Part shown: positions 8,994 to 26,823 of the stretch, one piece after another
How positions within the stretch are numbered: position 1 is the first letter of the stretch
How the letters are laid out: every line of letters begins with the position of its first letter
DNA from: a virus
Lineage: Duplodnaviria; Caudoviricetes
Reading direction: 5' to 3' (one strand)
Virus record (IMG/VR): IMGVR_UViG_3300042975_000096
Length of the DNA stretch: 64,000 nucleotides
The notes under the pieces: model-generated
Databases searched by the model: none
Told to the model about the DNA's origin: nothing
The model's input: the letters and a program-made list of their open reading frames with translations, nothing else
Program-made: the position numbers and the translations under genes

Positions 8994-9926
8994 TTACGAT
9001 TGTTCCGATACAGTATTTCTTTCCCAAAAAACACCATTAACGAACCCCTGAATTGAATCATCATTATTTGCCATATCTAATCTCTGTTCAGCCCACACAC
9101 AAAACTGTTCATCCATTTCAATGCCAATATAATTTCTCTTTAGTTTTTTTGCAACAACCGACGTTGTTCCACTACCCAAAAATGGGTCAAATACAACATC
9201 ATTCTCATTTGAAGATGCCAATATCATCTTAGCAATCAATTTCTCCGATTTTTGTGTTGGGTGTGCTGTGTTTTCTGCCATAGACCAAAATGGAATTGTA
9301 ATATCATCCCAAAAATTAGAAGGACATGTATCTCTGAAATTACCTTTCTTACCTTCTACCCAATCTTTAGGTATGCCATCTACTTTATATGGTGCAATTA
9401 CCTTTTTACGAATCTTAACCGCATCCAAATTAAAAGTGTATTCATCGCTTTTCGTACAAAACCAAACATCTTCTAATGAATTTTTCCAATTTGCTTTTGC
9501 TCCACGACCCTTTTCTCTTTGCCATGTAATTCTACTTCTTACATCAAAAAACTCTCTTAATACATTGCCAATAACTAAAGAGGATTTCCAATCACAACAA
9601 ACATAAATAGACCCATCATTTTTCAATAATGGATATACTGCTTCAATCCACTTTCTTGTATAATTTTTATAATCCTCATCATCTTCTTTATGAAAAGTCA
9701 TTTTATTGAATTTCTTTGTTAAATTATAAGGAGGGTCAACAATCATCAAATCAACACTATTATTTGGCAACTTTGAACAAACGTCAAAAGTATCGCCTAA
9801 AATTGTTTTATTCAATACATTATTCAAATCATTCTGATTTTTTTCAACAGAAATGGTTCTATCTAAGAATTTTTGTCCATCTTCTATTGAAGTTTTTATT
9901 GTTTTATTTCTTGAATCATCACTCAT
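8994..9926 (-). CDS. DNA N4-C/N6-A methyltransferase (beta class)
   Basis: DPPY precedes HPTQK and DPFLGSGTT. Confidence 0.92.
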   Translation of the reverse strand: MSDDSRNKTIKTSIEDGQKFLDRTISVEKNQNDLNNVLNKTILGDTFDVCSKLPNNSVDLMIVDPPYNLTKKFNKMTFHKEDDEDYKNYTRKWIEAVYPLLKNDGSIYVCCDWKSSLVIGNVLREFFDVRSRITWQREKGRGAKANWKNSLEDVWFCTKSDEYTFNLDAVKIRKKVIAPYKVDGIPKDWVEGKKGNFRDTCPSNFWDDITIPFWSMAENTAHPTQKSEKLIAKMILASSNENDVVFDPFLGSGTTSVVAKKLKRNYIGIEMDEQFCVWAEQRLDMANNDDSIQGFVNGVFWERNTVSEQS

Positions 9927-10801: not shown

Positions 10802-12610
10802 TTATTTTTTTACAACGCACCAACGCTGAAATAAATTATATTTTATTTCACTATCTTTCATTTTTGAAAAAACTATATCAAATAATTTTCTATCAAAATC
10901 AGAATACAACATAATATATTTATATCCAGCCCATATTGAATACGCTTTTTTATCATTCATTAAACTCAATAAAACTTCTTTATCATCTGTGCTTAACAAT
11001 TTAGTCATTTTAGAAGGAAAATTAAAAAAATCTTCGCTAGAAACCTTAATTAGCCCCAAATTTTTCTTTTCTTCTTGTGTTGATTCTTCATCTATTTTTT
11101 TAACAACATCCATCAACCTATTAACAAAAATAGGCTCTTTTATTTCCAAATTATTATCAATGATATATTTAACAACACTTTTTTGAAGAATGCCAGTTAG
11201 CTCATCATAATTATGCTGTTTTAATAACTCTCTGCATTTTGTTCCACTAATACTTTTAATTCCTTTTGTCATTTTTTTTCTAGGAATACATATAACATTT
11301 ATTCCTCTTTGATTAAATAAATATTTGGCTTGTGTTATATGTTGCCGTGTAATGTTATCATCTGTTTCAATACCACAAATAAAATGGTCAATATTCATCT
11401 TGTTAAATCCTTGCCTAACGACATCCAATAATTTATAGGTATTCAATCCAACAAAATTTTTACTATGTCTTAACATTAAATCATTATATTCAGGCCAAAA
11501 AGTTTGATAAGAAAACATCTCTGGCATATCAACAACAATTACATTTTCCAAATCATTAACACCAATTCTAACAAGGTTTGAACAATCCTCTTTATCAAAA
11601 ATTAAATTCATTCCTTCTTGCATAAGAAATACAACAAAAACATCGAACATTCTTGCCCCTGTTTCAACTAAATATCTATGTCCAACTGTAAATGGATTAC
11701 AACTCATAACCGAAGCACCAATTGTTGTTGTAGAGTCAACGACAATATTTTTCTTCTTTAATTCGTTTTTATATTCACTTATTAAAGAGTTTACATTATA
11801 ATCAACCACTGAAAATGACCGCTCAAATAAATAATGTAATTTATCGAAAATAATCTTTGCAATATTTTTATGACAATATGCCGTATAATGCGCAGCATCG
11901 ACAAAATTTTCTTTTTCATGTTTTCTTAAAAAATAATCTTTTGTTTTTATTACAGGAAACAAATCAATTAATTCTCCTAAAATACACGGCGCACATCCAA
12001 TAATTACAATATCTCCTTCTTTTATTGAAAAATTAATAATTCTATTATACATATTTATTAATGTTTCATTGTTTGTCGCGCAATTATATATTGAATAATT
12101 TTTTAAATTAAAGTTTCTCAAATAAGATGATATTGTTTCATTATCATTTACATAATATCCAAACATTGTAGAATTTCCAAAAAACAAAACGTTATTTCGC
12201 TTATCTATTTCGCCCTCTTTTCTAACCCCTTCACAAACATTTATTGAATTTGAACTATAATCATCAAAACAAAAATATTCATTATTTTGAACTAAAGATG
12301 GATTGGCTACAGAAATTTCTTTTACATATGAATCATCATAATCAATAAAACAATTTTTATAAATATCTTTATTTTTGTTTACGATATCATAAAAATATTT
12401 TTTTCTAAACTTATCAAAAAATACCTCATATTCTAAATTTTTTTTATCATATGTTTTATAAACAGTATCCGTACATATTTTTTCAACATAATTTTCAAAT
12501 TCATTTTTTCTTTCTAAGTCCTTAACCAATGGTATTTCCAACAAATACATATTTGCACCACGATGAACAACAAAATCATATATATCACTTATTATTTGCA
12601 AATTTTCCAT
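10802..12610 (-). CDS. SGNH/GDSL-like domain fused to a citrate-lyase-ligase-like (HxGH) nucleotidyltransferase domain
   Basis: FFGNSTMFG and DAAHYT (SGNH blocks); VMSCNPFTVGHRYLVE and ISGTKCRELL (CitC-like C-terminal domain). Confidence 0.65.
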   Translation of the reverse strand: MENLQIISDIYDFVVHRGANMYLLEIPLVKDLERKNEFENYVEKICTDTVYKTYDKKNLEYEVFFDKFRKKYFYDIVNKNKDIYKNCFIDYDDSYVKEISVANPSLVQNNEYFCFDDYSSNSINVCEGVRKEGEIDKRNNVLFFGNSTMFGYYVNDNETISSYLRNFNLKNYSIYNCATNNETLINMYNRIINFSIKEGDIVIIGCAPCILGELIDLFPVIKTKDYFLRKHEKENFVDAAHYTAYCHKNIAKIIFDKLHYLFERSFSVVDYNVNSLISEYKNELKKKNIVVDSTTTIGASVMSCNPFTVGHRYLVETGARMFDVFVVFLMQEGMNLIFDKEDCSNLVRIGVNDLENVIVVDMPEMFSYQTFWPEYNDLMLRHSKNFVGLNTYKLLDVVRQGFNKMNIDHFICGIETDDNITRQHITQAKYLFNQRGINVICIPRKKMTKGIKSISGTKCRELLKQHNYDELTGILQKSVVKYIIDNNLEIKEPIFVNRLMDVVKKIDEESTQEEKKNLGLIKVSSEDFFNFPSKMTKLLSTDDKEVLLSLMNDKKAYSIWAGYKYIMLYSDFDRKLFDIVFSKMKDSEIKYNLFQRWCVVKK

Positions 12611-12619
12611 ATTAACCCC

Positions 12620-13900
12620 TCAATCAAAATGCTTCAAAATAGTATTTATAATGTTTCTCTTTTTAACGTCTTTCCATAAAACAGAATCCATATCAACATT
12701 AAAATCATTTTTATTTGTGCTAAAATCATTTTTTACATTAATTATTTTTTCTAATCTATATTTTCCCCAAATATTATGTGTGGTTATTGAAACATTTTTT
12801 AATGCATTGGAATTTACATTTATTGCAAAAGAATTTCCATAATAATATAAATTTCCAGGATTTAAAACACTGTTGTTTAATTTCGACATTAATTTTTTAC
12901 AATCCGCTTCATTTTCTTCTATAACGACCCAATCTTTATAATTGTTTAGATTTATAGTATCATCTGCTTGTATTTTATCAAAATTTTTAGGAAACAATAT
13001 TTTATTGTCATTGCTCATACTTACTTCTGCAACTTTCTTTAATTGTAATTCTTTTTGTTCATCCCATAATTGGTTGTTTTTTTCATAATCTTCTTTTGTA
13101 ATTATCTTATAATCACCATTTTTTATTTTTTTACTATTCGGTAATTTATTTTTAATACTTTCAGTAATATAATCAAACTTTTGATTATCATCCAACATTG
13201 GCAATCCCAATCTAGCACCACAAATTTTACACCAGTGTTTTTGGTCAGAATAATCTACTCGCTTCCACCAATCAGGTTTTACATCCCAACCACCTGGACC
13301 ATCAAACAACAAGTCTAATGCTCCTGCCATCTCACAAAAAAATGCACCTTTTGGCGTTATCGAAGCTCCACAATTATTTTGAATCCAACACCTATTTTCT
13401 CTTTTTTCAAATTCTTCATCTGATATCCCTAAATCTTTATAATTAACCAATACTGAAAAATGTTTTGTTTTATTTTTATGGTCATTACATCGCAATGATG
13501 AAAACGTATCACAAATCAATTCCATATTGTCATAAAAATTATTTGTTTCAGCAGTTGTATATAATCGCAATTTTCCATGATTATAAGGCATATAATCCAT
13601 AGCATATTTATTTACATCACAAACAGGTTCAGTAAACATTTTATTTGTTGCCGTTCCGAATTTATCATGTAAATATTGAACCATTTTTGCAAAATCAGGA
13701 TGTAACAATGGTTCTCCACCAATTATTCCAATTTGTCCATTCCAACCATCTAGCGAATCAATTGCATTTTTAAAAAACTCAAAATCCATAAAGTATGGGT
13801 TTTGATAATGTCCACAAAATCTCATACAATTTGAACAAGAATTAATACACTTATTCGTAATATCTATTAATATCGTTGGTTTATCAGCTATCTTCTTCAA
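12620..13900 (-). CDS. Radical SAM protein
   Basis: CINSCSNC (CX3CX2C), GGEPLLHP, and C-terminal CWIQNNCG...FFCE...CKICG. Confidence 0.88.
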   Translation of the reverse strand: MKKIADKPTILIDITNKCINSCSNCMRFCGHYQNPYFMDFEFFKNAIDSLDGWNGQIGIIGGEPLLHPDFAKMVQYLHDKFGTATNKMFTEPVCDVNKYAMDYMPYNHGKLRLYTTAETNNFYDNMELICDTFSSLRCNDHKNKTKHFSVLVNYKDLGISDEEFEKRENRCWIQNNCGASITPKGAFFCEMAGALDLLFDGPGGWDVKPDWWKRVDYSDQKHWCKICGARLGLPMLDDNQKFDYITESIKNKLPNSKKIKNGDYKIITKEDYEKNNQLWDEQKELQLKKVAEVSMSNDNKILFPKNFDKIQADDTINLNNYKDWVVIEENEADCKKLMSKLNNSVLNPGNLYYYGNSFAINVNSNALKNVSITTHNIWGKYRLEKIINVKNDFSTNKNDFNVDMDSVLWKDVKKRNIINTILKHFD

Positions 13901-14732
13901 GTTCCCACTCCTTTCTATCTTTACAACTTATACCCCAATCAACAATTGTTTTTTTGTTGCAATATTTACAAAAATTAATACTTTTCCTATTATTCATTTT
14001 TATTATTTCATCAATGCTATCTATCTCAAAAATATTAATAAAATCATCATTTTTTTTAACAGCATAATTTTCATTAAAAAAAGAATTGAACTTATCAATA
14101 TTAGCAGGAATAATACAAGAATAAAAATCACCATTCATATTTAATTGACAGCAAGGCATTACATTAAAAAACTCATACATGTTTTCGTCAACATTTTCTT
14201 TTATTTTGTTCAAATCACTATTTCTATTATTACAAATAATATCATTATCATTTGTTTTTCCCAAATTAACCCTATAAAAATGTTTACCTTCATAATAATT
14301 TGTAACCGATAATTCTACATTATAGGTTTTAAGCTCATCATAAAAATCATTTGACTTTTCAATTGTCCCGTTTGTTATCAATTTCACCACAATATCTGGA
14401 AAAATTTCTCTCGTTTTTCTCACATAACTCATTACATCAGGATGCAACAATGGTTCTCCACCCATCAAACTGATACCATAAAACGGTTTGTTTTTTAGTA
14501 TTTGTTTTAACCTTCGCAACAACCTGGTAAAATCTTCTATATTAGCAAACCACTCATCCGCTAATGGAGCAAAATGGTCACATCCCTTACAGTTCAAATT
14601 ACAATGATTTGTAATATGAATATCAACAGTTCCTAATCCATTTTTAACATAATTAAGTTCTTCAATATATTCTTGTATGTTTTTTTTATTGTTTTCTTTT
14701 AGTAATTTTATCAAACCATCAACCCATTTCAC
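13884..14732 (-). CDS. Radical SAM protein (CxxxCKGCxHF type)
   Basis: HITNHCNLNCKGCDHFAPL, GGEPLLHP, FCKYC. Confidence 0.9.
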   Translation of the reverse strand: MKWVDGLIKLLKENNKKNIQEYIEELNYVKNGLGTVDIHITNHCNLNCKGCDHFAPLADEWFANIEDFTRLLRRLKQILKNKPFYGISLMGGEPLLHPDVMSYVRKTREIFPDIVVKLITNGTIEKSNDFYDELKTYNVELSVTNYYEGKHFYRVNLGKTNDNDIICNNRNSDLNKIKENVDENMYEFFNVMPCCQLNMNGDFYSCIIPANIDKFNSFFNENYAVKKNDDFINIFEIDSIDEIIKMNNRKSINFCKYCNKKTIVDWGISCKDRKEWELEEDS

Positions 14733-15580
14733 CTTAATAACTTCAACACCAAATCATCTTTGTGAAAACATAATTTATTAATCACATCTTGTTTTGTGAA
14801 TTTTATTTCTTGCGTGACATTATCATCAAAATCAAACAACCTCAAATATTCTGTCAAGCCATCATCTTGTGATTTATTTTCCGAAGAATAATAAACCTTT
14901 TTATTCATATAAACAAACTCAAAAATTAACTTGCCAATATTTTCAGAATATATTGAATCAACAACGTTTCTCCATCGTTGATATTTTAATGTATTTTTCA
15001 ACATACTATTAAACTTTATTTCATCTGTATCTTCCGCATTTCTCTCTAGCTCATCAAACACACCATTTTTTTTATCCAACGAATCCAAATAATTTAATCT
15101 TTCTAATGAAAACTTATGATAATACACATAGTAATTGTTAGTATAAAATTTTTCATTACATGGATTTCCTAAAATTTTTATATTTGGTATATTTTGCACA
15201 TACTTGTTTTTTTTATTGTTATTCATTATGTAATCATAAAACATTAACCCAGAATCAAGCATAATTAAATTATCATACCTAAAATCAAACGTAGATAGAT
15301 ACTTCATGATGGCAAATGAAACAATTAAATTCTCTGATTTATGATTATTTATCCATTCATTTAATTTTCCAATATTACAAAATTCATAATTCATTCCTGC
15401 TATTGGTATTGATTTATTTATCGTATTAATATATTTCATATTGTTTTTCATATCTGCACAATCAACAAATATATAACATTTTATATTGCAACCATATTTT
15501 TTTAAATTAAAATACATATCAAATAACGAAGTCGTTATCCCGTTCATTTGTGGATAATAAAAGACTATATCAACATTCAT
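14729..15580 (-). CDS. Unknown-family protein, paralogue 1 (possible GT-B-like fold)
   Basis: Shares NG.TTS..D..NL, Y.KFS.ER, ENIGK.IFEF and DDGLTEYL with 18917-19789 and 40631-41512. Confidence 0.6.
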   Translation of the reverse strand: MNVDIVFYYPQMNGITTSLFDMYFNLKKYGCNIKCYIFVDCADMKNNMKYINTINKSIPIAGMNYEFCNIGKLNEWINNHKSENLIVSFAIMKYLSTFDFRYDNLIMLDSGLMFYDYIMNNNKKNKYVQNIPNIKILGNPCNEKFYTNNYYVYYHKFSLERLNYLDSLDKKNGVFDELERNAEDTDEIKFNSMLKNTLKYQRWRNVVDSIYSENIGKLIFEFVYMNKKVYYSSENKSQDDGLTEYLRLFDFDDNVTQEIKFTKQDVINKLCFHKDDLVLKLLR

Positions 15581-15587
15581 TGTTTAA

Positions 15588-16571
15588 TTACCTCGATTTC
15601 AATATATTCTTCAGCGACTCTATACTTTTTGTAGCGAATGCAACATTACCATGTATTTCGCAATAAGGCTCTTTTTTTAATTGCTTAAATAAATCATTTA
15701 CTGATTCTCTATAAAAATCATTTATAATTATAATGTAATCATAACTATCATGAAATTTTTTCAACAATTCCATCTTTGAATAACGTTGTTTACATATATC
15801 AAAATCAATAAAATCTATAATATCAAAATAGCCATTGCTAATTTCCTCACTGTTCTCATAAACAACTAAGCAATGTCCTTTATATAATTGTTTGAATTCA
15901 TTATATAATTTTTTCATATATATTAATGAGTTAACTTGATTCATTACTCTTTTTAAATTTTTTCTTACATAGAAATAAGCGATTGGCTCATTACAAAAAG
16001 AATAATGTTTGCAATTTGACACATACCTAAATATTATTTCATCGTCAGCCATACGCAAATAAGAACAATCCCACTCACCATATTTTTCAAAACAGTTTCT
16101 ACTATGCGCAAAAGAGCACGTATCAACCTGATTAGAAACAAATATATTCGTTTTTGAACAATCAAGCCCTTTTAACTCTTTATTTCCTTCATCATCAACT
16201 ATAAAATATTTTGTAGTAACAACTTCTGTATTATCATTGATAACCTTTAATAAATTTTCACAGCATTTTTTATCTGTCTCATCATCATCATCAGGATATA
16301 AAATCCAATCCCCAGTAGAATGAATAACCCCATAATTTCTTGCATAACAATGACCTTTGTTTTCTTTCAATCGAAACATTTTTATATTATCCATACCTAG
16401 CGCATCAATAAATTGCTTCTTTTTTTTATATTCTTCAATCAATGAACAATCATCAACAATAATTAATTCCCAATTAGCATATGTTTGATTGACAACAGCC
16501 AAAACTGCTTTAGGAAAATAACAACTTCTATTATATGTTGGCATAATGAATGAGAATTTTATTCCATCCAT
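15588..16571 (-). CDS. Glycosyltransferase family 2
   Basis: FSFIMPTYNR, ELIIVDDCS, ARNYGV, PDDDD. Confidence 0.9.
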   Translation of the reverse strand: MDGIKFSFIMPTYNRSCYFPKAVLAVVNQTYANWELIIVDDCSLIEEYKKKKQFIDALGMDNIKMFRLKENKGHCYARNYGVIHSTGDWILYPDDDDETDKKCCENLLKVINDNTEVVTTKYFIVDDEGNKELKGLDCSKTNIFVSNQVDTCSFAHSRNCFEKYGEWDCSYLRMADDEIIFRYVSNCKHYSFCNEPIAYFYVRKNLKRVMNQVNSLIYMKKLYNEFKQLYKGHCLVVYENSEEISNGYFDIIDFIDFDICKQRYSKMELLKKFHDSYDYIIIINDFYRESVNDLFKQLKKEPYCEIHGNVAFATKSIESLKNILKSR

Positions 16572-17323
16572 TCTTCTTTACTCCTTTTTGATTGTTCCCA
16601 TTCTATGTCTTCAATAGGTTTTCTACAATACTTACAAAAATCATTTTTATTACGATAAAACTTATCAATAACCTCATCTGTCACATTATCATCATAAATA
16701 TCTAGAATATCTTCTTTTTTAACCTGATATGTTTCATTAAAATACTTATTAAAAATATCAATATACGCCTGTATTGGACATAAATACAATTTGCCATCTT
16801 TCAATTGCATTGATTTCCAATGAATCATACAACAATCAAAATCTGTTTGTTTCGCTTCATGTGTTAAAATATGTTTTCTTAATATTTTTGTTTTTTCATA
16901 TTGATTAAAATTTTTTGTTCTAACCCCAACGCTATTCAATAGTGCAAATAACTTCTCATAATTAACATTAATTGGATACCTTGTCATTTCTACCAAAACA
17001 TCATACTCTATTAAACTGTTTATCATTTCTCCCATTCTCTGTTTTAACAAACTACCATTACTTAATACACTCATCTTTGTATTTGGCATAATTTCATGAA
17101 TTGCTTTAAAAAATTCACAAACATTCGGATGAAGTAATGGTTCACCACCAAACAATCTAATATTATCTACAATTATTTTCGTGCCTAATTGTTTCAAATC
17201 TTTTTTAAATTCCTCAACATCAGCAAACCACGGTTCAGATAATGGCGAAAAATGCGCACATCCTTTACAGTTCACATTACAATGATTTGTAATGTGATAT
17301 TCAATCATTCTTACATGTTTCAT
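16559..17323 (-). CDS. Radical SAM protein (CxxxCKGCxHF type)
   Basis: HITNHCNVNCKGCAHFSPL, GGEPLLHP, FCKYC; paralogue of 13884-14732. Confidence 0.9.
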   Translation of the reverse strand: MKHVRMIEYHITNHCNVNCKGCAHFSPLSEPWFADVEEFKKDLKQLGTKIIVDNIRLFGGEPLLHPNVCEFFKAIHEIMPNTKMSVLSNGSLLKQRMGEMINSLIEYDVLVEMTRYPINVNYEKLFALLNSVGVRTKNFNQYEKTKILRKHILTHEAKQTDFDCCMIHWKSMQLKDGKLYLCPIQAYIDIFNKYFNETYQVKKEDILDIYDDNVTDEVIDKFYRNKNDFCKYCRKPIEDIEWEQSKRSKEEWME

Positions 17324-18912
17324 TTTATAATCATTCCTTTATCAAACACTAACCCATCCAGCTTTTCATTAAACATCCTAATCATATCTTTTGCATAATT
17401 GAAGATTGGCATACCACTATCATTAAATGAAGTATTTATTAATATTGGATTCCCCGTCTTTTTACCAAAATCAATTAATAAATCATGCAACCATTTATCC
17501 TCTTTAGCATCTACTGTTTGAATTCTAACTGTTCCGTCTAAATGTATTGCCCCATCAATAATATTTTCTTTTTTACAATACCCTAAAACATTCATATATG
17601 GGGCATCAACATTAATATCAAAATATTCTCCCATATACTCGCGAGGAATTAATATGCCATATGGTCTATACCATTCTCTATTTTTTATTTCGTTTAATTT
17701 ATCATGCATTTCTTTATGTAACGGTGAAGCCAATATACTTCTATGTCCTAACGCTCTCGGGCCCATTTCTATATTTCCCCTACATATACCAACAATACCA
17801 TCTTTTTCTAAAATTTCAATCAATTTATCATTATTAATATCAATCAAGTTATCCTTTATGTGCCTATAAAAATATGCTTTATCATAAATTTCAGAAGTAC
17901 AATAAAATTCATTAATATCTAAACTATTTAACTCATTTGGTTTGTTTTTTAATAAATAATTAAATATCGCTCCAACTGATTGACCTGTATCAGAAGCTAT
18001 TGGATTCCAATATATTTTTTTAAACCACATTGATTTAGCCAAATAATAATTCAACATGCAATTCAATGCGCATCCACCTGAAAAAACCAACGTATCACTA
18101 TATTCTTTATATTTATCAAAAACATTATTTAATACATCATCTATCCATATTTTTTGAAAAGTATATGCCAAATCATATTTATTATGCTTTAATTTCAATT
18201 GGTCAATATAATTATTAATATACTTTTCGATATTTTCTTTTTCAGCCCAATTATTCCAATTTATACTTTTTATTTTTTTCATAAAGTCGCGTATATCTCT
18301 AATTTCTATAAAGTTACTAGATATACCGGCATAAGCCATAAATTTACCTTCCATGCCATCATAATATTTAGTTTCTAAAAAATTACTTGATAATATCTCA
18401 TAAAACAATCCATAACTAAATCGTTGTTCTTGAAATATTTTTTTTAATTTATTGTTTTTATATAAAAACACCGCATGGTTTCCATCACCTTTACCATCTA
18501 TTGATACACATAATGCATTATCTAATTTATTTATTATTGCAGTTGGCAATACATGATTTTCTTGATGATGCATTTTTTTCATTTCACAATTCTCTAACAT
18601 TTTAACAAACTCAAATGATTCTTGTTTCAAATATCCATCTTCGAATTGAGTATAACACCACACAACTACGTCAAATCTATCCACATTAAACAAATCTTTA
18701 ATCATTTTTTGTGCTTTATAAATGTTTTTATGCATACAATCTTTATAAATTGAATCAACATAATTAGCATAATCAATCTTCTCTTGTGAATGAAACGAAA
18801 AATGTTTTTTCTTTAACAATTTATCCATTTCAATGTATCTTAGCTCTTTTGTTTCTGTATCATAATAGCATACATTATAGTCTTGATAGCATTGTATTCC
18901 TAAAATTTTCAT
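17320..18912 (-). CDS. O-carbamoyltransferase (NodU/CmcH family)
   Basis: HHQENH, SIDGKGD, EGKFMAYA, SGGCALNC, GPRALGHRSILA, KNREWYRPYG, HLDGTVRIQTV, INTSFN. Confidence 0.92.
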   Translation of the reverse strand: MKILGIQCYQDYNVCYYDTETKELRYIEMDKLLKKKHFSFHSQEKIDYANYVDSIYKDCMHKNIYKAQKMIKDLFNVDRFDVVVWCYTQFEDGYLKQESFEFVKMLENCEMKKMHHQENHVLPTAIINKLDNALCVSIDGKGDGNHAVFLYKNNKLKKIFQEQRFSYGLFYEILSSNFLETKYYDGMEGKFMAYAGISSNFIEIRDIRDFMKKIKSINWNNWAEKENIEKYINNYIDQLKLKHNKYDLAYTFQKIWIDDVLNNVFDKYKEYSDTLVFSGGCALNCMLNYYLAKSMWFKKIYWNPIASDTGQSVGAIFNYLLKNKPNELNSLDINEFYCTSEIYDKAYFYRHIKDNLIDINNDKLIEILEKDGIVGICRGNIEMGPRALGHRSILASPLHKEMHDKLNEIKNREWYRPYGILIPREYMGEYFDINVDAPYMNVLGYCKKENIIDGAIHLDGTVRIQTVDAKEDKWLHDLLIDFGKKTGNPILINTSFNDSGMPIFNYAKDMIRMFNEKLDGLVFDKGMIIK

Positions 18913-18916
18913 ATAG

Positions 18917-19789
18917 TTACCCTTTCAATAATTTTAATATTTCATCATTATGTTTCATAAACAAAACCTCTTGTAATTTTGATTTTGATAATAAATTCAA
19001 ATCAAAATCAAAATTATCATCAATTCCAAATTGAAAAAGAAATTCTGTTAATCCATCATTGATTTTTTTATTCTTACAAGAATAACTGGCTTCTTTTTCT
19101 AATAGCAAAAATTCGAACATCATTTTTCCTATATTCTCATAATAATCAGCACCAAATTCTGTATATGGATTATCTTTTGATTTTTTGCTATATCTAAAAT
19201 AATCATATCTTTTATACGAAAACGGTTTAATATCTAATTTGTTCTTTTTTCTTTTAAAATATTCTTCAGATGTTAATATGCCATTTTCATTTGTGCTTAT
19301 TTGTTTCAATCTATTAATCCGCTCTTCTGAAAACTTCATATACCAAATAAAACTATTCTTTACAAATTGTGCATTAAACTCATTACAAATAGTAATAATG
19401 TCATTATCATTTATATACGAAATCATATTATTGAATTCATTTTGAGAAATCTCTTTCTTATATATAAATGCAGGATAAAATAAAAACACTTTATTAAAAT
19501 CAATCTCTATCGTTTTTGTTTGAACTAAATCAATTACCTCACTACTAATCACACAAGCATTTCCATGTAAATCGTAATGCATTTTACCATACTTCAATGG
19601 CAAATAAACAATATTTGATTCATTACCAAAATAGCGTTTGAATCTTTTAACTACTAATTTATCATCAAAGAATACAATTAATCTTATTTCCCAATTTGTA
19701 TATTTTCTTAAATTATAAAACAAATCTTCAAATGAAGTATATGCCCCATTTAATTCATATAAATAATAAATCAAATCTATTTTCATCAC
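18917..19789 (-). CDS. Unknown-family protein, paralogue 2
   Basis: NGAYTSFEDL, KFSEERI, ENIGKMMFEF, NDGLTEFL. Confidence 0.6.
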   Translation of the reverse strand: MMKIDLIYYLYELNGAYTSFEDLFYNLRKYTNWEIRLIVFFDDKLVVKRFKRYFGNESNIVYLPLKYGKMHYDLHGNACVISSEVIDLVQTKTIEIDFNKVFLFYPAFIYKKEISQNEFNNMISYINDNDIITICNEFNAQFVKNSFIWYMKFSEERINRLKQISTNENGILTSEEYFKRKKNKLDIKPFSYKRYDYFRYSKKSKDNPYTEFGADYYENIGKMMFEFLLLEKEASYSCKNKKINDGLTEFLFQFGIDDNFDFDLNLLSKSKLQEVLFMKHNDEILKLLKG

Positions 19790-20925
19790 TAAACACTCTC
19801 AATACATTTATATATTTTCATCATTATATTCTCTATACTGTACTTTTTTGATTCCTTAATACAATTCTTTCTTATATTAACAATATCCTTACAGAAACTA
19901 TTGCGTATAGAAGCCGGTAAATCGTCTGTGACAAGCCATCCATTATATCCATCTATAACTATATCATTCATTGATTTACACTCCTTGTATCCAATCACAG
20001 GCGTTCCAAATGACATTGCTTCTAATGCTACAGTTGGCAAACCTTCTATTATTGATGGTATCACTAAAACATGTGCATTACGATAGAACGGTTCTACATT
20101 TTTTTGATATCCATGAAAATGAATATTGTCAAATTTGAAGTATTCAGATATATCCAAAAAACCATCATTGGCATAATTATACCCTACAACATCACACTCA
20201 TAATACGTATCTTTAATATAGTCTAATAATAACTGCGTTCGCTTTATATCCCTGTTTATTCTTCCAACATATAGAATGTTACTTCGTTTCTTATTGATTT
20301 CTATGTTGTCAGGTATTTCTATACAATTATAAAAAACGTATGATTTATCTTTATATTTTTCACTAACATATTGAGGTAATAAAAATCCTAGTCTATCACA
20401 AGATTCCAACATCATATCATAAAGTAACTCTTTATCTTTCAATGCTTTTTGAAAAAATAAATATTCTAGCCCTTGCATTTTACTAAATGTGTTTTTAATA
20501 TATTTTGGCTCATTATGAAAAAACATTATTATTGGAACATTTGTCATTTTAGATATAATTGACCAAAATATTACTTGCTGACCCCCACCTGCATTGCAAA
20601 ATATACAACGTGGTTTTATCTGAAAAACGGTTCGTGCAACTTTATTCATATATCCTCTAGAAAAATAAGTAATCATATCACTATGAACAATTATATTTTT
20701 CAAATTCAAAAAATTTCCTGGTTGCTGAAACAGATGAACTTCGTATTTTTTAGATAACGATTTGCAAATTTTTATGGTATATTTCTCCGCTCCCCATAAA
20801 TATTGTTCACCTTCATTTTTCATAATATTGCAAGTAATAATAATTTTATTTTCATCTCTATTTTGTACAAACCATTTTTTGTTTAATGTAAATTGAGCAT
20901 ATAATAAATCATTTTTTATATTCAC
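19789..20925 (-). CDS. Glycosyltransferase, GT4-type (GT-B)
   Basis: ILYVGRI...K, VIPSIIEGLPTVALEAMSFGTPVI (EX7E), DGYNG. Confidence 0.9.
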   Translation of the reverse strand: MNIKNDLLYAQFTLNKKWFVQNRDENKIIITCNIMKNEGEQYLWGAEKYTIKICKSLSKKYEVHLFQQPGNFLNLKNIIVHSDMITYFSRGYMNKVARTVFQIKPRCIFCNAGGGQQVIFWSIISKMTNVPIIMFFHNEPKYIKNTFSKMQGLEYLFFQKALKDKELLYDMMLESCDRLGFLLPQYVSEKYKDKSYVFYNCIEIPDNIEINKKRSNILYVGRINRDIKRTQLLLDYIKDTYYECDVVGYNYANDGFLDISEYFKFDNIHFHGYQKNVEPFYRNAHVLVIPSIIEGLPTVALEAMSFGTPVIGYKECKSMNDIVIDGYNGWLVTDDLPASIRNSFCKDIVNIRKNCIKESKKYSIENIMMKIYKCIESV

Positions 20926-21736
20926 GACATGCCATCCTTAAAATATTTTTTTCCAACTTCTTATCCACCAATTTGTTTGCATACATTTCCCATATTTTAC
21001 CAAACAAATCAGCTTTCACCCATGGTTTTGGATTACTAGCATAATGAATTATCTTTATTTTTTCTGATTTTATTCTTTCTCCATAAATCCGAATATATTC
21101 ATTAAACTTCAAATGACCATAATTGTTTGCCAAAAAATTATATCCATAATCTATATATTTTATTTGACCATTAAATGCATCATTCATAATATCCTGTTCC
21201 CATAAATGATAATCTTTTGCTTCTGATTCTAACCTTATATAATAACTATACATTGTATCTTTTTTATTAATAACAGTATTCCTTATCTTTTTTAGATTCA
21301 ATAAAATATTTCCTGCATTAAAATAATTTAACCCGTTTATCTTATCTCTTACTCCTGCTACAAAACAATCCTCAATATCAATTTCAAAAATTTCTGAAAT
21401 ATCTTCTATTACAACTGTATCTGCATCAATATGAAAAACCTTGTCACAATCTAGTAATTCATGCAACAACAATTTATAATATACTACACCTGCATTATCT
21501 TCTCTGATAAAAATATTTTTATCAATATAAATTGGATGGATGCAAAAATCAATAGAGCTTAATTGACCTATTTCTCCTATATCATTAAACTCTATACATA
21601 ACAAATAAACATCGTAATTTACATCACGATGCTTATTTGTTTTCAATGAATACATTGAAACATATGTTTGATATAGATATGATTTATTTGTAATGTAACA
21701 AAGATTAAAACGTCTTTGCAAACTCATTATAAACAC
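20909..21736 (-). CDS. Glycosyltransferase family 8
   Basis: HIDADTVV, YFNAGNILLNL, EQDIMN, YNF, IIHYASNPKPW. Confidence 0.9.
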   Translation of the reverse strand: MFIMSLQRRFNLCYITNKSYLYQTYVSMYSLKTNKHRDVNYDVYLLCIEFNDIGEIGQLSSIDFCIHPIYIDKNIFIREDNAGVVYYKLLLHELLDCDKVFHIDADTVVIEDISEIFEIDIEDCFVAGVRDKINGLNYFNAGNILLNLKKIRNTVINKKDTMYSYYIRLESEAKDYHLWEQDIMNDAFNGQIKYIDYGYNFLANNYGHLKFNEYIRIYGERIKSEKIKIIHYASNPKPWVKADLFGKIWEMYANKLVDKKLEKNILRMACREYKK

Positions 21737-22340
21737 TTCTCAATTCTTCTTCATCTACTGCACTATCAATTCTATCCTTGAAATCCTTAAATGCTTTATA
21801 TGCTTCATCAACGGCATTAAATTCGTCCAATGAATCTAGATATTCAGATAGCTTTTCCAAAACTTCCGTATCACCTGAATTGATTACTTTTAAATATTCT
21901 TCTTCGCGATTTTCATCTGTAATAAAATATCCTTTTGATTCCAAATAATGATTTAATTTGAAAAAATTAAATAATGCAAAATTTGAAATGGATAGTTTAT
22001 CACCAATAGAATCACCCATAATGCGAATGAAATGTGTTTTTTCTCGTTCTAGTTTATCTTGACTTGATAGCTTAACCGTTTCGACTTCTTTTATATCTTG
22101 CTCTTGTAAAATCGTTGGTTTTAAATTAACGTCATAATAAATAACACATTCAGGCTCACTTCTATGTAAATCTAATTTATTAAAAATTCTCAAATACGCT
22201 TGTGGAGAAACCTCAACATAATCCTCTTTATTCAATAAAATTGGTTCATTCTCTAATTTCAAAAATGGATTAACTAAAAAAGCTCTATCTTCTTTAACTA
22301 AAATACCACAATAGCATTTCATTTCTACATTATCACTCAT
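21705..22340 (-). CDS. Hypothetical protein; candidate accessory of the rSAM/Cys-rich substrate system
   Basis: 211 aa, overlaps both neighbours; GYFITDENREEEYLKVINSGD segment. Confidence 0.5.
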   Translation of the reverse strand: MSDNVEMKCYCGILVKEDRAFLVNPFLKLENEPILLNKEDYVEVSPQAYLRIFNKLDLHRSEPECVIYYDVNLKPTILQEQDIKEVETVKLSSQDKLEREKTHFIRIMGDSIGDKLSISNFALFNFFKLNHYLESKGYFITDENREEEYLKVINSGDTEVLEKLSEYLDSLDEFNAVDEAYKAFKDFKDRIDSAVDEEELRSVYNEFAKTF

Positions 22341-22581
22341 CTGTTTTCGTTCCTTCCTGCACTTGTTTCATAATATCATCAATATCTTTATTATTTTTAT
22401 CATTTTCTTCTGGAAATTCTAGTTCTATGTTTTGTTTTCTAGCCAAACTAACCAGCAACATATTAACAACATCCATAACCGTAGCATATGCCAATTTATC
22501 AATCGGATAAATATTTTCTCTAGCACTAATTACAAAATTTTCAATAGCTTTATCTACTGTTAATATTTTCTTATCGGACAT
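22333..22581 (-). CDS. Small hypothetical protein
   Basis: 82 aa with AAGGA RBS; second gene of the operon. Confidence 0.55.
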   Translation of the reverse strand: MSDKKILTVDKAIENFVISARENIYPIDKLAYATVMDVVNMLLVSLARKQNIELEFPEENDKNNKDIDDIMKQVQEGTKTDE

Positions 22582-22598
22582 TTAAATCTTTCCTTTCA

Positions 22599-23366
22599 TT
22601 AATAAATGTATGCATAACACCATCCATATCTTCTAACTACATGGCAAGAACAAACTTCATCACCAAAACACGTACAATAATTACAATTACATACACATGT
22701 ATTGGATAATAAATTAGCAGCTCCAACTAAGAATCTATTGAAAAACTCAGCAAATGTTTTATCCCCAACTTCAACAGTCGCAACAAACAACGCAACCCAT
22801 TGGTCTAAATTATCCGTTTGCAATGCCATATTTCCCCACGGTTTATATTTAACAGTTCCATTTGGCGAACCTTCTTCAAACCCTGTTACTGAATCATCCG
22901 TAGAATTACCATGCGAAACACCTAGTACACAATATGTTGGATTACCTCCGTATGAAGCACTCTCCATGTGACTATAATCTGTTGCATTATTTATACGATT
23001 ATTATACAAATCCCATCTATAATCAGCTGGATGATTGTTTTTATCATATTGATACATATGCAATGTTGTTTTAAATGCACGTTTTATATCGTCAGCCGTT
23101 ACCATTACATCTGGGTCTCCACTTGTACCAATTTCAATATCATCAACGCCACCACGTAATGACCATTCTCTACGCAAAATACTCCATAGCTTTTGCATTC
23201 TTTCAAATGTTAATTTCGCTCCTTCTGCCACAACTTCCATTTGTGGATTTCTTGGGGCATCACTACCCGGATGAGAACCATAAGGTTTACAAATCGGAAA
23301 TCCTGCTGGTCTTTCAATTGTATTCCAACCGCCCTCAACATGCATTACATAAGGCCCTTGTGCCAT
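22599..23366 (-). CDS. Protein with Cys-rich C-terminus (CVCNCNYCTC...CSC...C); candidate rSAM substrate/virion protein
   Basis: GGAG RBS; late-promoter motif upstream; 8 Cys in the last ~32 residues. Confidence 0.6.
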   Translation of the reverse strand: MAQGPYVMHVEGGWNTIERPAGFPICKPYGSHPGSDAPRNPQMEVVAEGAKLTFERMQKLWSILRREWSLRGGVDDIEIGTSGDPDVMVTADDIKRAFKTTLHMYQYDKNNHPADYRWDLYNNRINNATDYSHMESASYGGNPTYCVLGVSHGNSTDDSVTGFEEGSPNGTVKYKPWGNMALQTDNLDQWVALFVATVEVGDKTFAEFFNRFLVGAANLLSNTCVCNCNYCTCFGDEVCSCHVVRRYGWCYAYIY

Positions 23367-23412
23367 AATTAATCAACTCCATATATTTATTATATAAATT
23401 TTCAATTATTAT

Positions 23413-23427
23413 TCTAATATATAGATA
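23413..23427 (-). promoter_or_regulatory. Putative late promoter heading the modification operon
   Basis: TATC TATATAT TAGA (one mismatch to consensus), 47 nt upstream of 23366. Confidence 0.45.
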
Positions 23428-23436
23428 CGTTTTCTA

Positions 23437-24639
23437 TCATTTTTTATCATGATTTTCCGTAATACGTTGATTAGCAATATTACAATAATGCAATTCTTTT
23501 TCAATTCCTATAAATTTTCTATCTAAAGTATCACATGCAACACCTGTAGTTCCACTTCCTGAAAACATATCCAAAACAATCTGACCTTCTCTTGTAATTA
23601 ATTTAACCAAATATTCCATTAGCTTTATTGGTTTAACTGTAATATGGTCATTATATTTACCTTTTTCAGATTTAGAAGCCTTTGCACAATAAAAAAATCT
23701 TGATGCTCCACCCTCATCACCATATGTTATTTGGATATCTCCTGCTTTTCCCAATCCACCATGTTCAAAAAACACGCCCTCTTTTGTTCGTTTACAGTTT
23801 GTTCCGCTTTTCAAATGACCACTTTGTTCATCTAATAATTCGGCAGACACTTCATCTAAAATAACATTTGACGGAAATCTCCCTTTTGGATTCGCACTAG
23901 CCATAACATTTTTCGTATTATCAAATCCACAACTCTTATCATTCATAACAACTGCATTTTTTCTACCATGTCTAGAAGTTGTTTTTAATGGTTCATTGTG
24001 CGAAATTCTACAATCATCAATGTTAATAGCACCCGTTCCATATTTCAAAACATTTTCACATACTGTTTTTTCTTCTATTGGTTTTCTCGCCACACAAATC
24101 AATTCTTGTGCAGGTTTTAATGCAGTATTCCATCCGTTCCACTTTTTAGCTTCTTCTGTTTCGAATTCTACATCTCTAACATATTCTTGACCATTATAAT
24201 CTTTTGGTCTATCATTATCTGCATGGATTTTATTATATCCCATAGAAGCCGTAGCCTTTTTTCCTTTAAGTTTCTTAAATGCTTGCGTATTGGCTGAACC
24301 ATTTTTTATTTTTGATTCAATTTGCTTTCCAACATCAGCCCCATGTGGCATACCACTACCATAAATCCATGACATCGTATCACGAATTTCAAATCCTGCA
24401 TCTTCAATAGCACAAACCATACGATGATATGTTCTTGTGGAATTAAATACAAGAATGTGACCACCCGGTTTCAATACACGGAATACCTGCTCCCACATTT
24501 CTACACTATTTACAATACCTGTTTTATCCCACCCTTTTGACATAAAACCAATATTATAAGGTGGGTCTGAAATAACAGCATCAACGCTATTACTTTTCAT
24601 TTTTTTCATTTCTTCAATGCAATCGCCATTTATAATCAT
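23437..24639 (-). CDS. DNA N4-C/N6-A methyltransferase (beta class, long insert)
   Basis: ISDPPY, HITVKPIKLM, DMFSGSGTTG. Confidence 0.92.
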   Translation of the reverse strand: MIINGDCIEEMKKMKSNSVDAVISDPPYNIGFMSKGWDKTGIVNSVEMWEQVFRVLKPGGHILVFNSTRTYHRMVCAIEDAGFEIRDTMSWIYGSGMPHGADVGKQIESKIKNGSANTQAFKKLKGKKATASMGYNKIHADNDRPKDYNGQEYVRDVEFETEEAKKWNGWNTALKPAQELICVARKPIEEKTVCENVLKYGTGAINIDDCRISHNEPLKTTSRHGRKNAVVMNDKSCGFDNTKNVMASANPKGRFPSNVILDEVSAELLDEQSGHLKSGTNCKRTKEGVFFEHGGLGKAGDIQITYGDEGGASRFFYCAKASKSEKGKYNDHITVKPIKLMEYLVKLITREGQIVLDMFSGSGTTGVACDTLDRKFIGIEKELHYCNIANQRITENHDKK

Positions 24640-24644
24640 TTATC

Positions 24645-25715
24645 TTAATTCCTTCTCATCTTTTGATAGGCTTTAATATAATTGGAAATCTTTTTATACA
24701 TAGCGCACACACTATCATTATTCGATTTATTCCAATCTTCAACTTTACCATTGCTATTGATGGAATTACATCTAAAACAGAAAATTGAATCGCATTCCTG
24801 ACATTTACTGTTTTTTGCAAACATATTGTTTCTTACTAAATAATTATGTTCAATCTTATACAAACAATTATCGTCAAAAATATTTGTATAAAACATTTTA
24901 TCATCTGCATACAAACAACCATGGCAATACGTTACTCTACCATCTAAATCAACAATAAACGAATCGTCACCACCATGGCAATCAGCCCTATCTGCCGTAT
25001 CAAACCACACAAATCCAGTATATCCATGATTATCTTTTTTGTTGTCTATAAAATACTGAATCAACTTAATAAATTGATTGTTCATTTTATCAAAATCAAT
25101 TAGTCCATCACTTAATGTATCTGGTGTACATGCAAAAACAACTTTATGTTTTAACGTCTGATTGAATTTGTCATAATTGACATATTGCTGATAAATATTA
25201 TTCTCTAAATCATTTACAGTACATGTAGATTTAATTCCAAAATTAAATCCGTTATCATCAAAAAAATGAATTGCTTCTTTAACAACTTTATCCGTTTCCA
25301 TAACTGTTTTTCCTAACTGAACCCTTTGATTATTTTCTTCATTATGGAAATCATAAGAAACCTGAACCTGTAGACGTTTCCCAATCAAATTCTTTAGCTC
25401 TAGCAATTCTTTTTTGTATTTATTTACCAATGAACCATTCGTATACATAAAAAATTCAACATTATCATACATACTAAATTCTTTTACAATACGATAAATA
25501 TCTTTGAAATAAATGAGTGGTTCACCACCCCAAAACTCAACATGAACTAAATCATTGTTTTCTTGAAGAACATGGAGCAATTCAATTACCCTGTCAAACG
25601 TCTTTGGATATAATGACTCTTTGCTCTCTACCGCGCCATTCTTAACCTCAAAACAATATTTGCATCTAAAATTACACGCCTTACCCATATTGATGGATAT
25701 TCCAACTTTGTTCAA
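24645..25715 (-). CDS. Radical SAM/SPASM protein
   Basis: CNFRCKYC, FWGGEPL, CHGG...YCHGC, CQECDSIFCFRC. Confidence 0.9.
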   Translation of the reverse strand: MNKVGISINMGKACNFRCKYCFEVKNGAVESKESLYPKTFDRVIELLHVLQENNDLVHVEFWGGEPLIYFKDIYRIVKEFSMYDNVEFFMYTNGSLVNKYKKELLELKNLIGKRLQVQVSYDFHNEENNQRVQLGKTVMETDKVVKEAIHFFDDNGFNFGIKSTCTVNDLENNIYQQYVNYDKFNQTLKHKVVFACTPDTLSDGLIDFDKMNNQFIKLIQYFIDNKKDNHGYTGFVWFDTADRADCHGGDDSFIVDLDGRVTYCHGCLYADDKMFYTNIFDDNCLYKIEHNYLVRNNMFAKNSKCQECDSIFCFRCNSINSNGKVEDWNKSNNDSVCAMYKKISNYIKAYQKMRRN

Positions 25716-26764
25716 TTATTCCACCATCCTTTTTTTGTTATATCTATATTATATTCTTTGTTCATAAATAAATATAAACTAGATACCATATTATAAATTT
25801 CCTTTAATAATAAACAATATCCATCAACAATATCTCCGTTTTTATACTGCACATATAAACATCCTTGATTACAGAACTTATTTATTTTACATTGATTACA
25901 TTTATCATTTATCGTTATGTTATGTTCCGCTACAAATTTAATGTTATCATGATAATATTTATTCTCATTACTATCACACAATCTATAATAATCGTTTGTA
26001 TAAAATCTAGAACAAGGATATATAATTCCACTCGGAGTTAAACTAAATCCATTTTTACCTGCAAAACAAACAAAATTTCGTTTTCCTGAAACAATATTAT
26101 CTAATACTCTTTCTACAAACCCTATTCTTATCCATCTATGATAATTTTTATAATGAAAAATTAAGAACTCTTTCAATTTTAAAAGCTCTTTTTTTATCAC
26201 TATTAAATTGTTTTCATTCCAAACATCATCTTTTACAAAAGATATATCCATATATAAATCATCACAATCATTTTCCATCGCTAATTTATAAAAGTAATTT
26301 ACAACCTTCATAATGGATGGATTGTGATTGCTTATCATTGCTTTAGCTTGTACAGGAACAATATTGTTTTTTACCAATTGCTCGAAATTTGAATGATTAT
26401 TATCACATTCTCCATCACAACTAATACCTATATTAATATGATGAAGTTTTAAAATGTTTTTTATTTCTTCATTCAATAATAATGCATTCGTTTGCAAAAA
26501 ACTGAATTTTATATTATAATTGTTCTTCATCCACTCATCAAATAAAATAATTTTATTTATTTCTAATAGTGGCTCTCCACCAAAATAAGTAACATTATAC
26601 TCACCACTAAATTGTACATCAGTCATAACAGATAGATTTTCCACGCAATTCATTTGCTTTTTTAATGATTCAAATGTTAATACTTCTTCATCTTGGTTGA
26701 TATAACAATACTTACATTTCAAATTGCACTTATTTGTCATATGCAACTGTAATACATGTTCCAC
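25712..26764 (-). CDS. Radical SAM/SPASM protein
   Basis: CNLKCKYC, YFGGEPL, CFAG...YPCSRF, CNQCKINKFCNQGC. Confidence 0.9.
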   Translation of the reverse strand: MEHVLQLHMTNKCNLKCKYCYINQDEEVLTFESLKKQMNCVENLSVMTDVQFSGEYNVTYFGGEPLLEINKIILFDEWMKNNYNIKFSFLQTNALLLNEEIKNILKLHHINIGISCDGECDNNHSNFEQLVKNNIVPVQAKAMISNHNPSIMKVVNYFYKLAMENDCDDLYMDISFVKDDVWNENNLIVIKKELLKLKEFLIFHYKNYHRWIRIGFVERVLDNIVSGKRNFVCFAGKNGFSLTPSGIIYPCSRFYTNDYYRLCDSNENKYYHDNIKFVAEHNITINDKCNQCKINKFCNQGCLYVQYKNGDIVDGYCLLLKEIYNMVSSLYLFMNKEYNIDITKKGWWNN

Positions 26765-26796
26765 ATTAAAACACTCCTTTTTTATAATTATATTAA

Positions 26797-26823
26797 AAAG
26801 CTCTACTGTATGGTAGAGCTTTT
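26797..26823 (-). terminator. Intrinsic terminator
   Basis: aaaagctctac-loop-gtagagctttt. Confidence 0.7.

Follow-up and report, generated by a model that had tools for sequence, protein, structure and literature searches.

A stretch of phage DNA of 64,000 nucleotides (IMG/VR record IMGVR_UViG_3300042975_000096, hereafter the window) carries between positions 10,802 and 26,764 a cluster in which two radical S-adenosylmethionine (rSAM) enzymes of the SPASM type are encoded near a protein with a cysteine-rich C-terminal tail, P0001, and near a set of glycosyltransferase (GT) and tailoring genes. The CNCNYC-repeat proteins, to which P0001 is related, constitute a wider, undescribed class of phage proteins, and very probably the Cys-repeat proteins belong with the SPASM enzymes to a single functional module. 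A combined reading of the cluster, in which a fibre-like virion protein is matured by SPASM rSAM enzymes acting on the Cys heptad tail and this maturation is coupled to glycosylation and carbamoylation in the cytoplasm, is given about an even chance. The window has a GC content of ~28% and is coding almost wholly on the minus strand. It encodes a portal protein with 67.5% identity to the one of Bacillus phage G and also contains genes for tail fibre, capsid and helicase, and judged by its genes the source is probably a giant phage and kin of phage G. The genes of the putative module are as follows:

25712 to 26764, minus strand: rSAM/SPASM enzyme A, 350 aa
24645 to 25715, minus strand: rSAM/SPASM enzyme B, 356 aa
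22599 to 23366, minus strand: Cys-tail protein P0001, 255 aa, with a profile match to the CNCNYC-repeat family
22333 to 22581, minus strand: P0002, an acidic protein of 82 aa whose family always lies directly 3' of the Cys-tail gene, with a homologue in the distant locus L013
21705 to 22340, minus strand: P0003, an acidic protein of 211 aa with the invariant motif ITDENREExYLxVI, matching phrog_25260 (unknown function)

The N-terminus of P0001 carries a FPICKPYG..GSDAPR motif, the protein further has a LRREWxLRGG helix, and its C-terminus is Cys-rich, as the initial annotation had noted for this first gene product, which ends ...TCVCNCNYCTCFGDEVCSCHVVRRYGWCYAYIY. The C-terminal unit reads CVCNCNYC[T/S]CFG[DHN]E..CxC..VV...GWCYxY and holds eight invariant Cys within ~27 residues, with one CX3CX2C spacing among them. 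In G-like phages the tail is identical at 19 to 30 of 31 positions, and the identity of the body goes down to 16-23%. The family is tiny: 5.8 billion clustered proteins yielded 5 homologues, and searching 1.84 billion with a profile gave 12 representatives. Its members measure 255-525 aa and several relatives have extra residues beyond the tail. No consistent match came from scanning every member of the Cys-tail and P0002 families with Pfam, and no match to P0001, or to the protein P0004 from the downstream part of the cluster, was obtained by tblastn against 50,697 phage records, phage G included. There are two SPASM enzymes, and each Cys-tail protein has two invariant Cys-containing elements.

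Conserved linkage of the Cys-tail protein with the rSAM pair and the GTs, a check proposed in the initial annotation, was found in seven related large-phage loci. The order in these is a protein of ~900 aa, SPASM enzyme A, SPASM enzyme B, the Cys-tail protein, a protein of ~88 aa and one of ~210 aa, followed by GT8, GT4, a GT-B-like protein, a carbamoyltransferase, an rSAM protein of ~250 aa and another of ~270 aa. This order is kept down to ~46% identity of the GT-B-like protein P0004. Further rSAM genes, a fusion of SGNH and nucleotidyltransferase domains, a GT2 and a second GT-B paralogue vary across the seven loci.

The association of Cys repeats with SPASM enzymes extends well beyond the G-like phages. 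Distant homologues of enzyme A (29-34% identity) in other phage contigs adjoin proteins of 189-220 aa whose C-termini carry the same unit in tandem repeats (for example CLCNCNYCTCNCNYCTCNCNYCTC...), and P0002-like and P0003-like genes are present in the same loci. The P0003 family accompanies CNCNYC-repeat genes across phages and occurs in 36 of the 65 loci that were scanned for it (L013-L077). The far more distant locus L013 holds, in this order, two SPASM genes, a Cys-repeat gene, P0002, P0003, a GT8 and a P0004-like GT-B gene. Scanning IMG/VR for DNA encoding CNCNYCxC gave 62 contigs, where one or two would be expected by chance according to a rough estimate, and 45 of the 62 hold a genuine Cys-repeat open reading frame (ORF). 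The encoded proteins measure 170-534 aa and carry between one and seven tandem copies of the CNCNYC[T/S] heptad, a variation in copy number that is as expected of an enzyme-recognised unit. Homologues of SPASM enzymes A/B were present in the fetched flank of 35 of the 45 loci, in each case on the same strand and for the most part at a distance of 4-400 nt. The 10 loci without such a match are mostly truncated, and a homologue is present in every one of the 19 loci whose flanks extend for 2 kb or more in both directions. At two loci, L032 (4685-7282) and L041, three or four tandem paralogous CNCNYC-repeat genes of ~200-240 aa stand behind one rSAM/SPASM set, which suggests a small library of alternative fibre proteins sharing one modification machinery. 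A metagenomic protein of 356 aa, P0036, which has an RNase PH-like N-terminus and CNCNYCT repeats at its C-terminus, was set aside as a possible assembly or gene-call chimera.

The fibre-like nature of the class was indicated by the sequence that follows the repeats. Peptidase_S74 passed the Pfam cut-off in all seven extended repeat proteins tested, the domain starting at SDxRLK right after the last heptad. In profile-profile comparison (hhalign) the G-like Cys-tail family matched the CNCNYC-repeat family with a probability of 96.8% (E 2e-10), and the second half of the G-like tail (VVKxxGWCYSY) aligned with only the first strands of S74. Because of this match to the wider family, P0001 is best seen as a divergent, single-unit member of the fibre-like class. 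Many CNCNYC-repeat proteins resemble S74-terminated fibres and spikes such as K1F endosialidase and T5 pb1 in ending with this intramolecular chaperone, whereas P0001 itself has no detectable S74 domain. To our knowledge, Cys heptads before S74 have not been described for characterised S74 fibres.

Members of the class also occur in cultured phages. A member of 534 aa with six C[DN]CNYCT heptads is encoded by Campylobacter phages CP220, CPt10, CP21 and IBB_35, in two of them at the following places:

L078, 6001 to 7605: CP220 gp140, a heptad protein of the same class as the Cys tail of the window
L079, 3501 to 5105: IBB_35 AEF56812, orthologue of CP220 gp140

In the neighbourhood of the Campylobacter member's gene are those for the tail sheath and tube and a gp63-like gene for fibre attachment, and an rSAM gene is located 2.2 kb downstream. 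Timms et al. 2010 (PMC2853527) reported an in-gene 21-bp repeat and, separately, a "highly unusual" set of 11-12 radical SAM genes, without linking the two. This repeat, the sole one annotated in CP220 and CPt10, encodes the six C[DN]CNYCT heptads. In the table of IBB_35 virion proteins found by mass spectrometry (PMC3322345), gene 3-9 is given with 60,318 Da and 2.6% coverage; the computed mass of the IBB_35 homologue is 60,317 Da, and it corresponds to gene 3-9. This is weak but direct evidence that one Cys-repeat member is a component of the particle. The CP220 nucleotidyltransferase protein and QueE-like rSAM showed no detectable kinship to the SGNH-nucleotidyltransferase fusion or the 254-aa rSAM of the window.

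For both SPASM enzymes the closest family match is PapB and the closest PDB match is the SCIFF thioether maturase CteB. Enzyme A scored 113.7 bits with the PapB model and 36.3 bits with TIGR04085, the SPASM domain model (cut-off 27 bits), and matched the CteB structure 5wgg at E 3.7e-13 in an alignment starting from CteB residue 98. Enzyme B scored 64.7 bits with PapB and matched CteB at E 2.9e-7. The equivalog thresholds were missed, at 340 bits for PapB and, with a score of 67.9 bits, at 425 bits for SCIFF; weak model matches pointing to the anaerobic sulfatase-maturating enzymes and QhpD were also obtained, with TIGR03942 (64.6 bits) and TIGR03906 (71.2 bits). The Cys motifs, conserved in orthologues, are CX3CX2C and CX2CX5CX3C in enzyme A, and CX3CX2C and CX2CX5CX2C (SPASM) in enzyme B. 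Since the alignments begin at CteB residue 98-100, a fused leader-binding recognition element (RRE), of the kind found in systems for peptides that the ribosome makes and that are modified after translation (RiPPs), is absent from both enzymes, and a PqqD search with P0002, which is adjacent and at 82 aa of RRE-like size, was without match. A complex prediction for the two enzymes with residues 196-255 of P0001 gave a score of 0.00 without controls and speaks neither for nor against binding.

With the ranthipeptide and SCIFF systems (PapB-PapA, CteB-CteA) the phage module shares SPASM rSAM enzymes having CX3CX2C and auxiliary-cluster Cys motifs, and enzyme genes that adjoin a Cys-dense C-terminal sequence with CX2N, CX2D and CX3E spacings. 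It differs from these systems in that the enzymes of the window score far below the equivalog cut-off and have no fused RRE, that the candidate substrate is a fibre-like heptad protein of 170-534 aa and not a leader-core peptide of ~45 aa, and that its SPASM enzymes always come as a pair of paralogues. RRE-less SPASM enzymes of ~350-370 aa also include the anaerobic sulfatase-maturating enzymes and QhpD, whose target is Cys within a large or folded protein; QhpD forms Cys-Asp/Glu thioethers in a protein subunit. However, the phage locus has no sulfatase or amine-dehydrogenase context, and the invariant FPIC[KR]P[YF]G at residues 23-30 of P0001 only loosely recalls CxPxR, the target of the sulfatase-maturating SPASM enzymes. 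A search of the literature on phage rSAM, SPASM and RiPP systems, and on ranthipeptides in phages, found nothing relevant.

In the proposed mechanism the two SPASM enzymes, the Cys-tail protein, P0002 and P0003 would be the G-like-phage version of a widespread phage module, in which RRE-less SPASM enzymes would act on CNCNYC[T/S] heptads located C-terminally in a trimeric protein of the fibre type. By analogy with the nearest characterised relatives, CteB and PapB, the likeliest chemistry would be the formation of sulfur-to-carbon crosslinks of the thioether type. The repeats could also be explained as a structural element of the trimeric fibre, either a metal-binding one (Zn, Fe or Fe-S), in the manner of a metallothionein or otherwise, or a disulfide one, and not as an rSAM substrate, in which case the neighbouring rSAMs would edit sugars or another molecule, or supply clusters or cofactors. 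T4 provides established cases of metal sites on the fibre axis, the HxH iron sites of gp37. The density of invariant Cys in the tail, including the CX3CX2C spacing, and the placement of the repeats immediately before the trimerising S74 chaperone are in favour of such a site, and the invariance of the whole tail, Gly, Trp and Tyr included, fits a folded one. Even so this explanation is considered unlikely, although it has to be reckoned with, as phages of very different kinds almost without exception have SPASM-type maturases linked to the repeats on the same strand, Cys-rich peptides are what the nearest characterised relatives of these enzymes modify, and the copy number of the repeats ranges from 1 to 7 or more.

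We regard as very improbable an explanation in which the tail is a scaffold yielding a released small glycosylated product or cofactor, as in mycofactocin, PQQ and pearlin-type pathways. Neither a protease nor a peptidase is encoded in the cluster, in several relatives the tail is followed by extra residues, the repeats of the wider family are internal to fibre proteins and precede S74, and one member was found in virions; what recalls such pathways is the invariant aromatic-rich C-terminal core beside SPASM enzymes, tailoring enzymes and a GT2 with a weak match to the mycofactocin GT (E 1.6e-5).

Crosslinking of the tail by the SPASM pair, as preferred here, would be followed in the G-like phages by the action of the glycan and tailoring genes downstream of P0003:

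20909 to 21736, minus strand: GT8 retaining glycosyltransferase (PF01501, E 2e-21), nearest to LgtC, GlyE (5gvv) and Skp1 AgtA
19789 to 20925, minus strand: GT4 (GT-B) glycosyltransferase (PF00534, E 2.6e-22), nearest to PglH, SdgB and PglA
18917 to 19789, minus strand: P0004, predicted compact GT-B-fold GT-like protein
17320 to 18912, minus strand: O-carbamoyltransferase of the NodU/TobZ/GdmN type (PF16861, E 2.9e-48)
16559 to 17323, minus strand: small rSAM, 254 aa, nearest to the viperin-like/BtrN/BlsE class
15588 to 16571, minus strand: GT2 (GT-A) glycosyltransferase (PF00535, E 6.7e-28), TuaG/WcaA-like
14729 to 15580, minus strand: P0005, predicted second GT-B-like paralogue
13884 to 14732, minus strand: small rSAM, 282 aa, nearest to 7wzv and viperin-like, BtrN and BlsE enzymes
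12620 to 13900, minus strand: rSAM-like protein, 426 aa, with CX3CX2C, a variable cluster member without PDB relative
10802 to 12610, minus strand: fusion of an SGNH-like hydrolase/acyl-esterase with a nucleotidyltransferase of the Citrate_ly_lig/cytidylyltransferase type, 602 aa (PF08218, E 8e-24), a variable member

As had been described, the 13 minus-strand genes from 23366 to 10802 abut or overlap (intergenic distances of -32 to +17 nt), in the order P0001, P0002 and P0003 and then as listed. All five rSAMs of the cluster retain CxxxCxxC. The 254-aa rSAM is, like the 282-aa one, also nearest to 7wzv, and the carbamoyltransferase is nearest to GdmN, TobZ and NovN (E 1e-25 to 1e-29). Against Atlas structures the 602-aa protein gave template modelling scores of 0.54-0.74, the matches being SGNH and Citrate_ly_lig fusions. 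The initial annotation had spoken of two paralogues of unknown family. P0004 and P0005 are indeed paralogous (27% identity, E 7e-21), but the family can now be proposed. At the sequence level no Pfam match was found for either, and Foldseek of the predicted structure of P0004 (mean predicted local distance difference test, pLDDT, 88) against the PDB gave no match at E <= 0.001. An exhaustive structure search then gave clear GT-B matches, over 247-249 residues, with Z scores of 14.4 for BshA (6n1x), 14.0 for the PglH-type 6eji and 13.6 for PimA (2gej); T4 alpha-glucosyltransferase was also among them (Z 12.4). On the strength of this model P0004 and P0005 appear to be GT-B-fold glycosyltransferase-like proteins, and counting them the operon has five GT-like genes instead of the three first reported. 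The 15 homologues of P0004 were each found in this type of cluster.

Among the cluster proteins there is no transmembrane segment, flippase, polymerase or priming phosphoglycosyltransferase, so that any glycan must be built on a soluble acceptor. The relatives of the GTs include the protein-glycosylating enzymes GlyE, SdgB, GtfA and Skp1 AgtA, as well as TarM. In the mechanism as proposed, the five GT-like proteins (GT8, GT4, two compact GT-B proteins and GT2), the O-carbamoyltransferase, two or three small rSAMs and the SGNH-nucleotidyltransferase fusion would build a short glycan, carbamoylated and possibly acylated or rSAM-edited, stepwise in the cytoplasm on a soluble acceptor, for which the Cys-tail protein itself or another virion protein would be the likeliest candidate. 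Among the head genes, in the stretch 40631-46034, a DegT aminotransferase gene (44883-46034, minus strand) and a gene of the UDP-glucose/ManNAc dehydrogenase family (41500-42777, minus strand) are interleaved with the major capsid gene (43224-44063). The DegT protein is present, at 50% identity, in a 281-kb relative carrying the cluster, and neither phage G nor any Bacillus-named organism was among the DegT matches listed (12 of 25).

Mycobacteriophage virion glycosylation cassettes and giant-virus glycan clusters supply soluble GTs, in some cases together with sugar-nucleotide genes, by which proteins of the particle are decorated in the cytoplasm. The window cluster resembles these in its phage-encoded soluble GTs (GT8, GT4, GT2 and two of predicted GT-B fold) without transmembrane segments, while differing in that the decoration of particle proteins is known there and the acceptor is putative here. 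We know of no characterised virion-glycosylation cassette that includes radical SAM enzymes, a carbamoyltransferase or a Cys-repeat acceptor. In the glycosylation of serine-rich-repeat adhesins of Bacillota (GtfA/B, GlyE, SdgA/B) a soluble protein is modified stepwise in the cytoplasm by GT4, GT8 and GT2 enzymes, and GlyE, SdgB and GtfA are among the nearest solved relatives of the window GTs. Unlike those systems, the cluster has neither a Ser-rich acceptor nor an accessory Sec system, and carbamoylation and rSAM tailoring are additional.

Homologues of GT8, GT4, GT2 and the carbamoyltransferase were detected by sequence-level search in few other Cys-repeat loci, and the glycan part may for this reason be a separate neighbour. 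In that case the genes from GT8 to the SGNH fusion would have a non-virion target, such as a free glycoconjugate or, with superinfection exclusion as the purpose, the capsule or wall teichoic acid of the host, and the SPASM pair alone would serve the Cys-tail protein. Prophage-encoded GTs acting on wall teichoic acid are known. The builders of lipopolysaccharide, wall teichoic acid and N-glycans (LgtC, PglH, TarM and TuaG) among the relatives of the GTs would agree with this, as would the cyanophages that carry a carbamoyltransferase within GT/sugar clusters without a Cys protein. On the other hand, the co-linear order is strict in the seven G-like loci and partly repeated in L013, L050 and L056, the glycan genes share an operon and translational coupling with the Cys-tail gene, and no membrane, flippase or polyprenol-linked component is present. 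An independent glycan cluster is rated as improbable, if not negligibly so. In L050 the module is followed by an NDP-sugar epimerase/dehydratase, a P0004-like GT-B gene and three rSAMs, and a GT-B-like gene is also present in L047 and L056.

A modification of DNA instead of protein, with the cluster producing a glycosylated or carbamoylated base and the rSAMs replacing the usual base-activating step, has also to be considered, as phage carbamoyltransferases can act on 5-hydroxymethylcytosine (PMC8670742). The NodU/TobZ-type enzyme family in a phage is common to that system and to the window. Two DNA methyltransferases, a DinG-like helicase and an HD protein are encoded close by, T4 alpha-glucosyltransferase was among the fold matches, and a gene at 37618-38844 (minus strand) encodes a 408-aa protein with an N-terminal domain like nucleoside 2-deoxyribosyltransferase (PF15891, E 2.8e-15) and a weak Nudix-like C-terminal part (phrog_1185). 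However, in agreement with the initial annotation, no hydroxymethylase was seen among the window ORFs scanned, and the cluster lacks the thymidylate-synthase-type dCMP hydroxymethylase partner of the known system. In the 281-kb relative with the cluster (98% complete by CheckV) there is no ThyA-type hydroxymethylase (PF00303), ThyX or TGT/DpdA; a search of this relative for Tet_JBP gave no match, though its control gave none either. In the MetaGPA study of Yang et al. 2021 (PMC8670742) carbamoyltransferases on modified contigs pair with thymidylate-synthase homologues, whereas those on unmodified contigs are flanked by GT group 1 genes, and it is the latter pattern that is found in the cluster, where the carbamoyltransferase is flanked by GTs. 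The explanation also leaves the link of Cys repeats and S74 unaccounted for, and we consider it very unlikely.

One of the two methyltransferases just mentioned lies inside the cluster itself. The rSAM/SPASM pair had been placed just upstream of the operon, and the two genes do lie upstream (26764-25712 and 25715-24645), but this gene stands between them and the Cys-tail gene:

23437 to 24639, minus strand: N6/N4 DNA methyltransferase, 400 aa (PF01555, E 2.5e-37)

It was found only in the window and in the closest relative, L001, and is not at this position in L002, L003, L004, L006 and L009. Therefore it is taken as a lineage-specific insertion, which is a further point against DNA hypermodification, and it probably does not belong to the system. 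The Pfam match covers its residues 19-390 against a model of 221 positions, indicating a domain insertion of ~170 aa. The second methyltransferase, of the same family, is at 8994-9926.

The initial annotation had proposed that the phage modifies one of its own structural proteins by rSAM chemistry and glycosylation, expressed late. The circumstantial evidence for the modification all points one way, but the late-promoter part found no support: in the window the motif TATAAATA was found 28 times against 19 +/- 4 expected and is barely enriched, and ATAAATATAT is not enriched. We infer from sequence comparison that the Cys repeats are the rSAM substrate, and the type of crosslink, the acceptor of the glycan and the biological role, be it fibre stability, receptor binding or shielding, are proposed on the same basis.

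Several points weigh against the combined reading. The AlphaFold2 model of P0001 (7-row alignment) had a pLDDT of 41 and was unusable, and Pfam found no S74 domain in P0001 or in the G-like family, so the fibre nature of P0001 rests on the local profile match and on its relatives. The detection of the IBB_35 homologue in virions was at 2.6% coverage only, and the surroundings of the cluster in the window are a helicase, an HD protein and methyltransferases, not a head or tail block. The SPASM scores far below the PapB equivalog cut-off, together with the lack of an RRE, leave the presumed recognition of the substrate without explanation, and Cys repeats of a trimeric fibre could bind metals instead. 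The glycan acceptor is one that we infer, because the GT8, GT4, GT2 and carbamoyltransferase homologues occur at few other loci, a scarcity which itself counts on this side. The full proposal is rated at somewhat less than even: that SPASM rSAMs crosslink CNCNYC[T/S] heptads at the tips of trimeric fibres, that some lineages add a carbamoylated, rSAM-edited glycan, and that RiPP-type chemistry serves in this way as a general means to harden or tune fibres, across many unrelated phages, cultured Campylobacter phages among them.

If this proposal is true, the peptide-crosslinking chemistry of small bacterial natural products is also used on full-size proteins of virus particles, and phages combine it with glycosylation of their own. 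The unusually numerous radical SAM genes of the Campylobacter group II phages and of many jumbo phages would gain a function, and a new, easily searched substrate motif would be defined in the CNCNYC heptad preceding the S74 chaperone. Fibre-tip stability, receptor binding or antigenicity would then depend on enzymes that need anaerobic or low-oxygen hosts, which would bear on the host range of phages and on the making of therapeutic phages in heterologous hosts.

As to the expression of the cluster, the 70-nt gap 5' of the P0001 gene contains a sigma-A-like TTAGAA-N17-TATAAT, which is not kept in distant relatives, where the ribosome-binding site GGAGTTGAT alone is conserved. Megablast of the whole operon gave no match. 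Directly upstream of the module in all relatives lies the gene of a large protein:

26828 to 29503, minus strand: N/Y-rich protein of 891 aa, of no known family

The family search for this protein gave only weak fn3/Ig/beta-propeller-like leads, and tblastn against the phage records gave nothing. In the window its gene is followed by a terminator hairpin (26796-26823), and in L004 and L008 the corresponding gene is translationally coupled to that of SPASM enzyme A. In the 354-kb relative an IS605-type TnpB gene (OrfB_IS605, Cas12f1-like_TNB; L003:5645-6874) is inserted immediately behind the Cys-tail gene. In the 281-kb relative, radical SAM matches number 10 in all. The window itself has, at 36033-37617 on the minus strand, a second rSAM/SPASM gene (365 aa) which overlaps a Cys-rich ORF of 170 aa.

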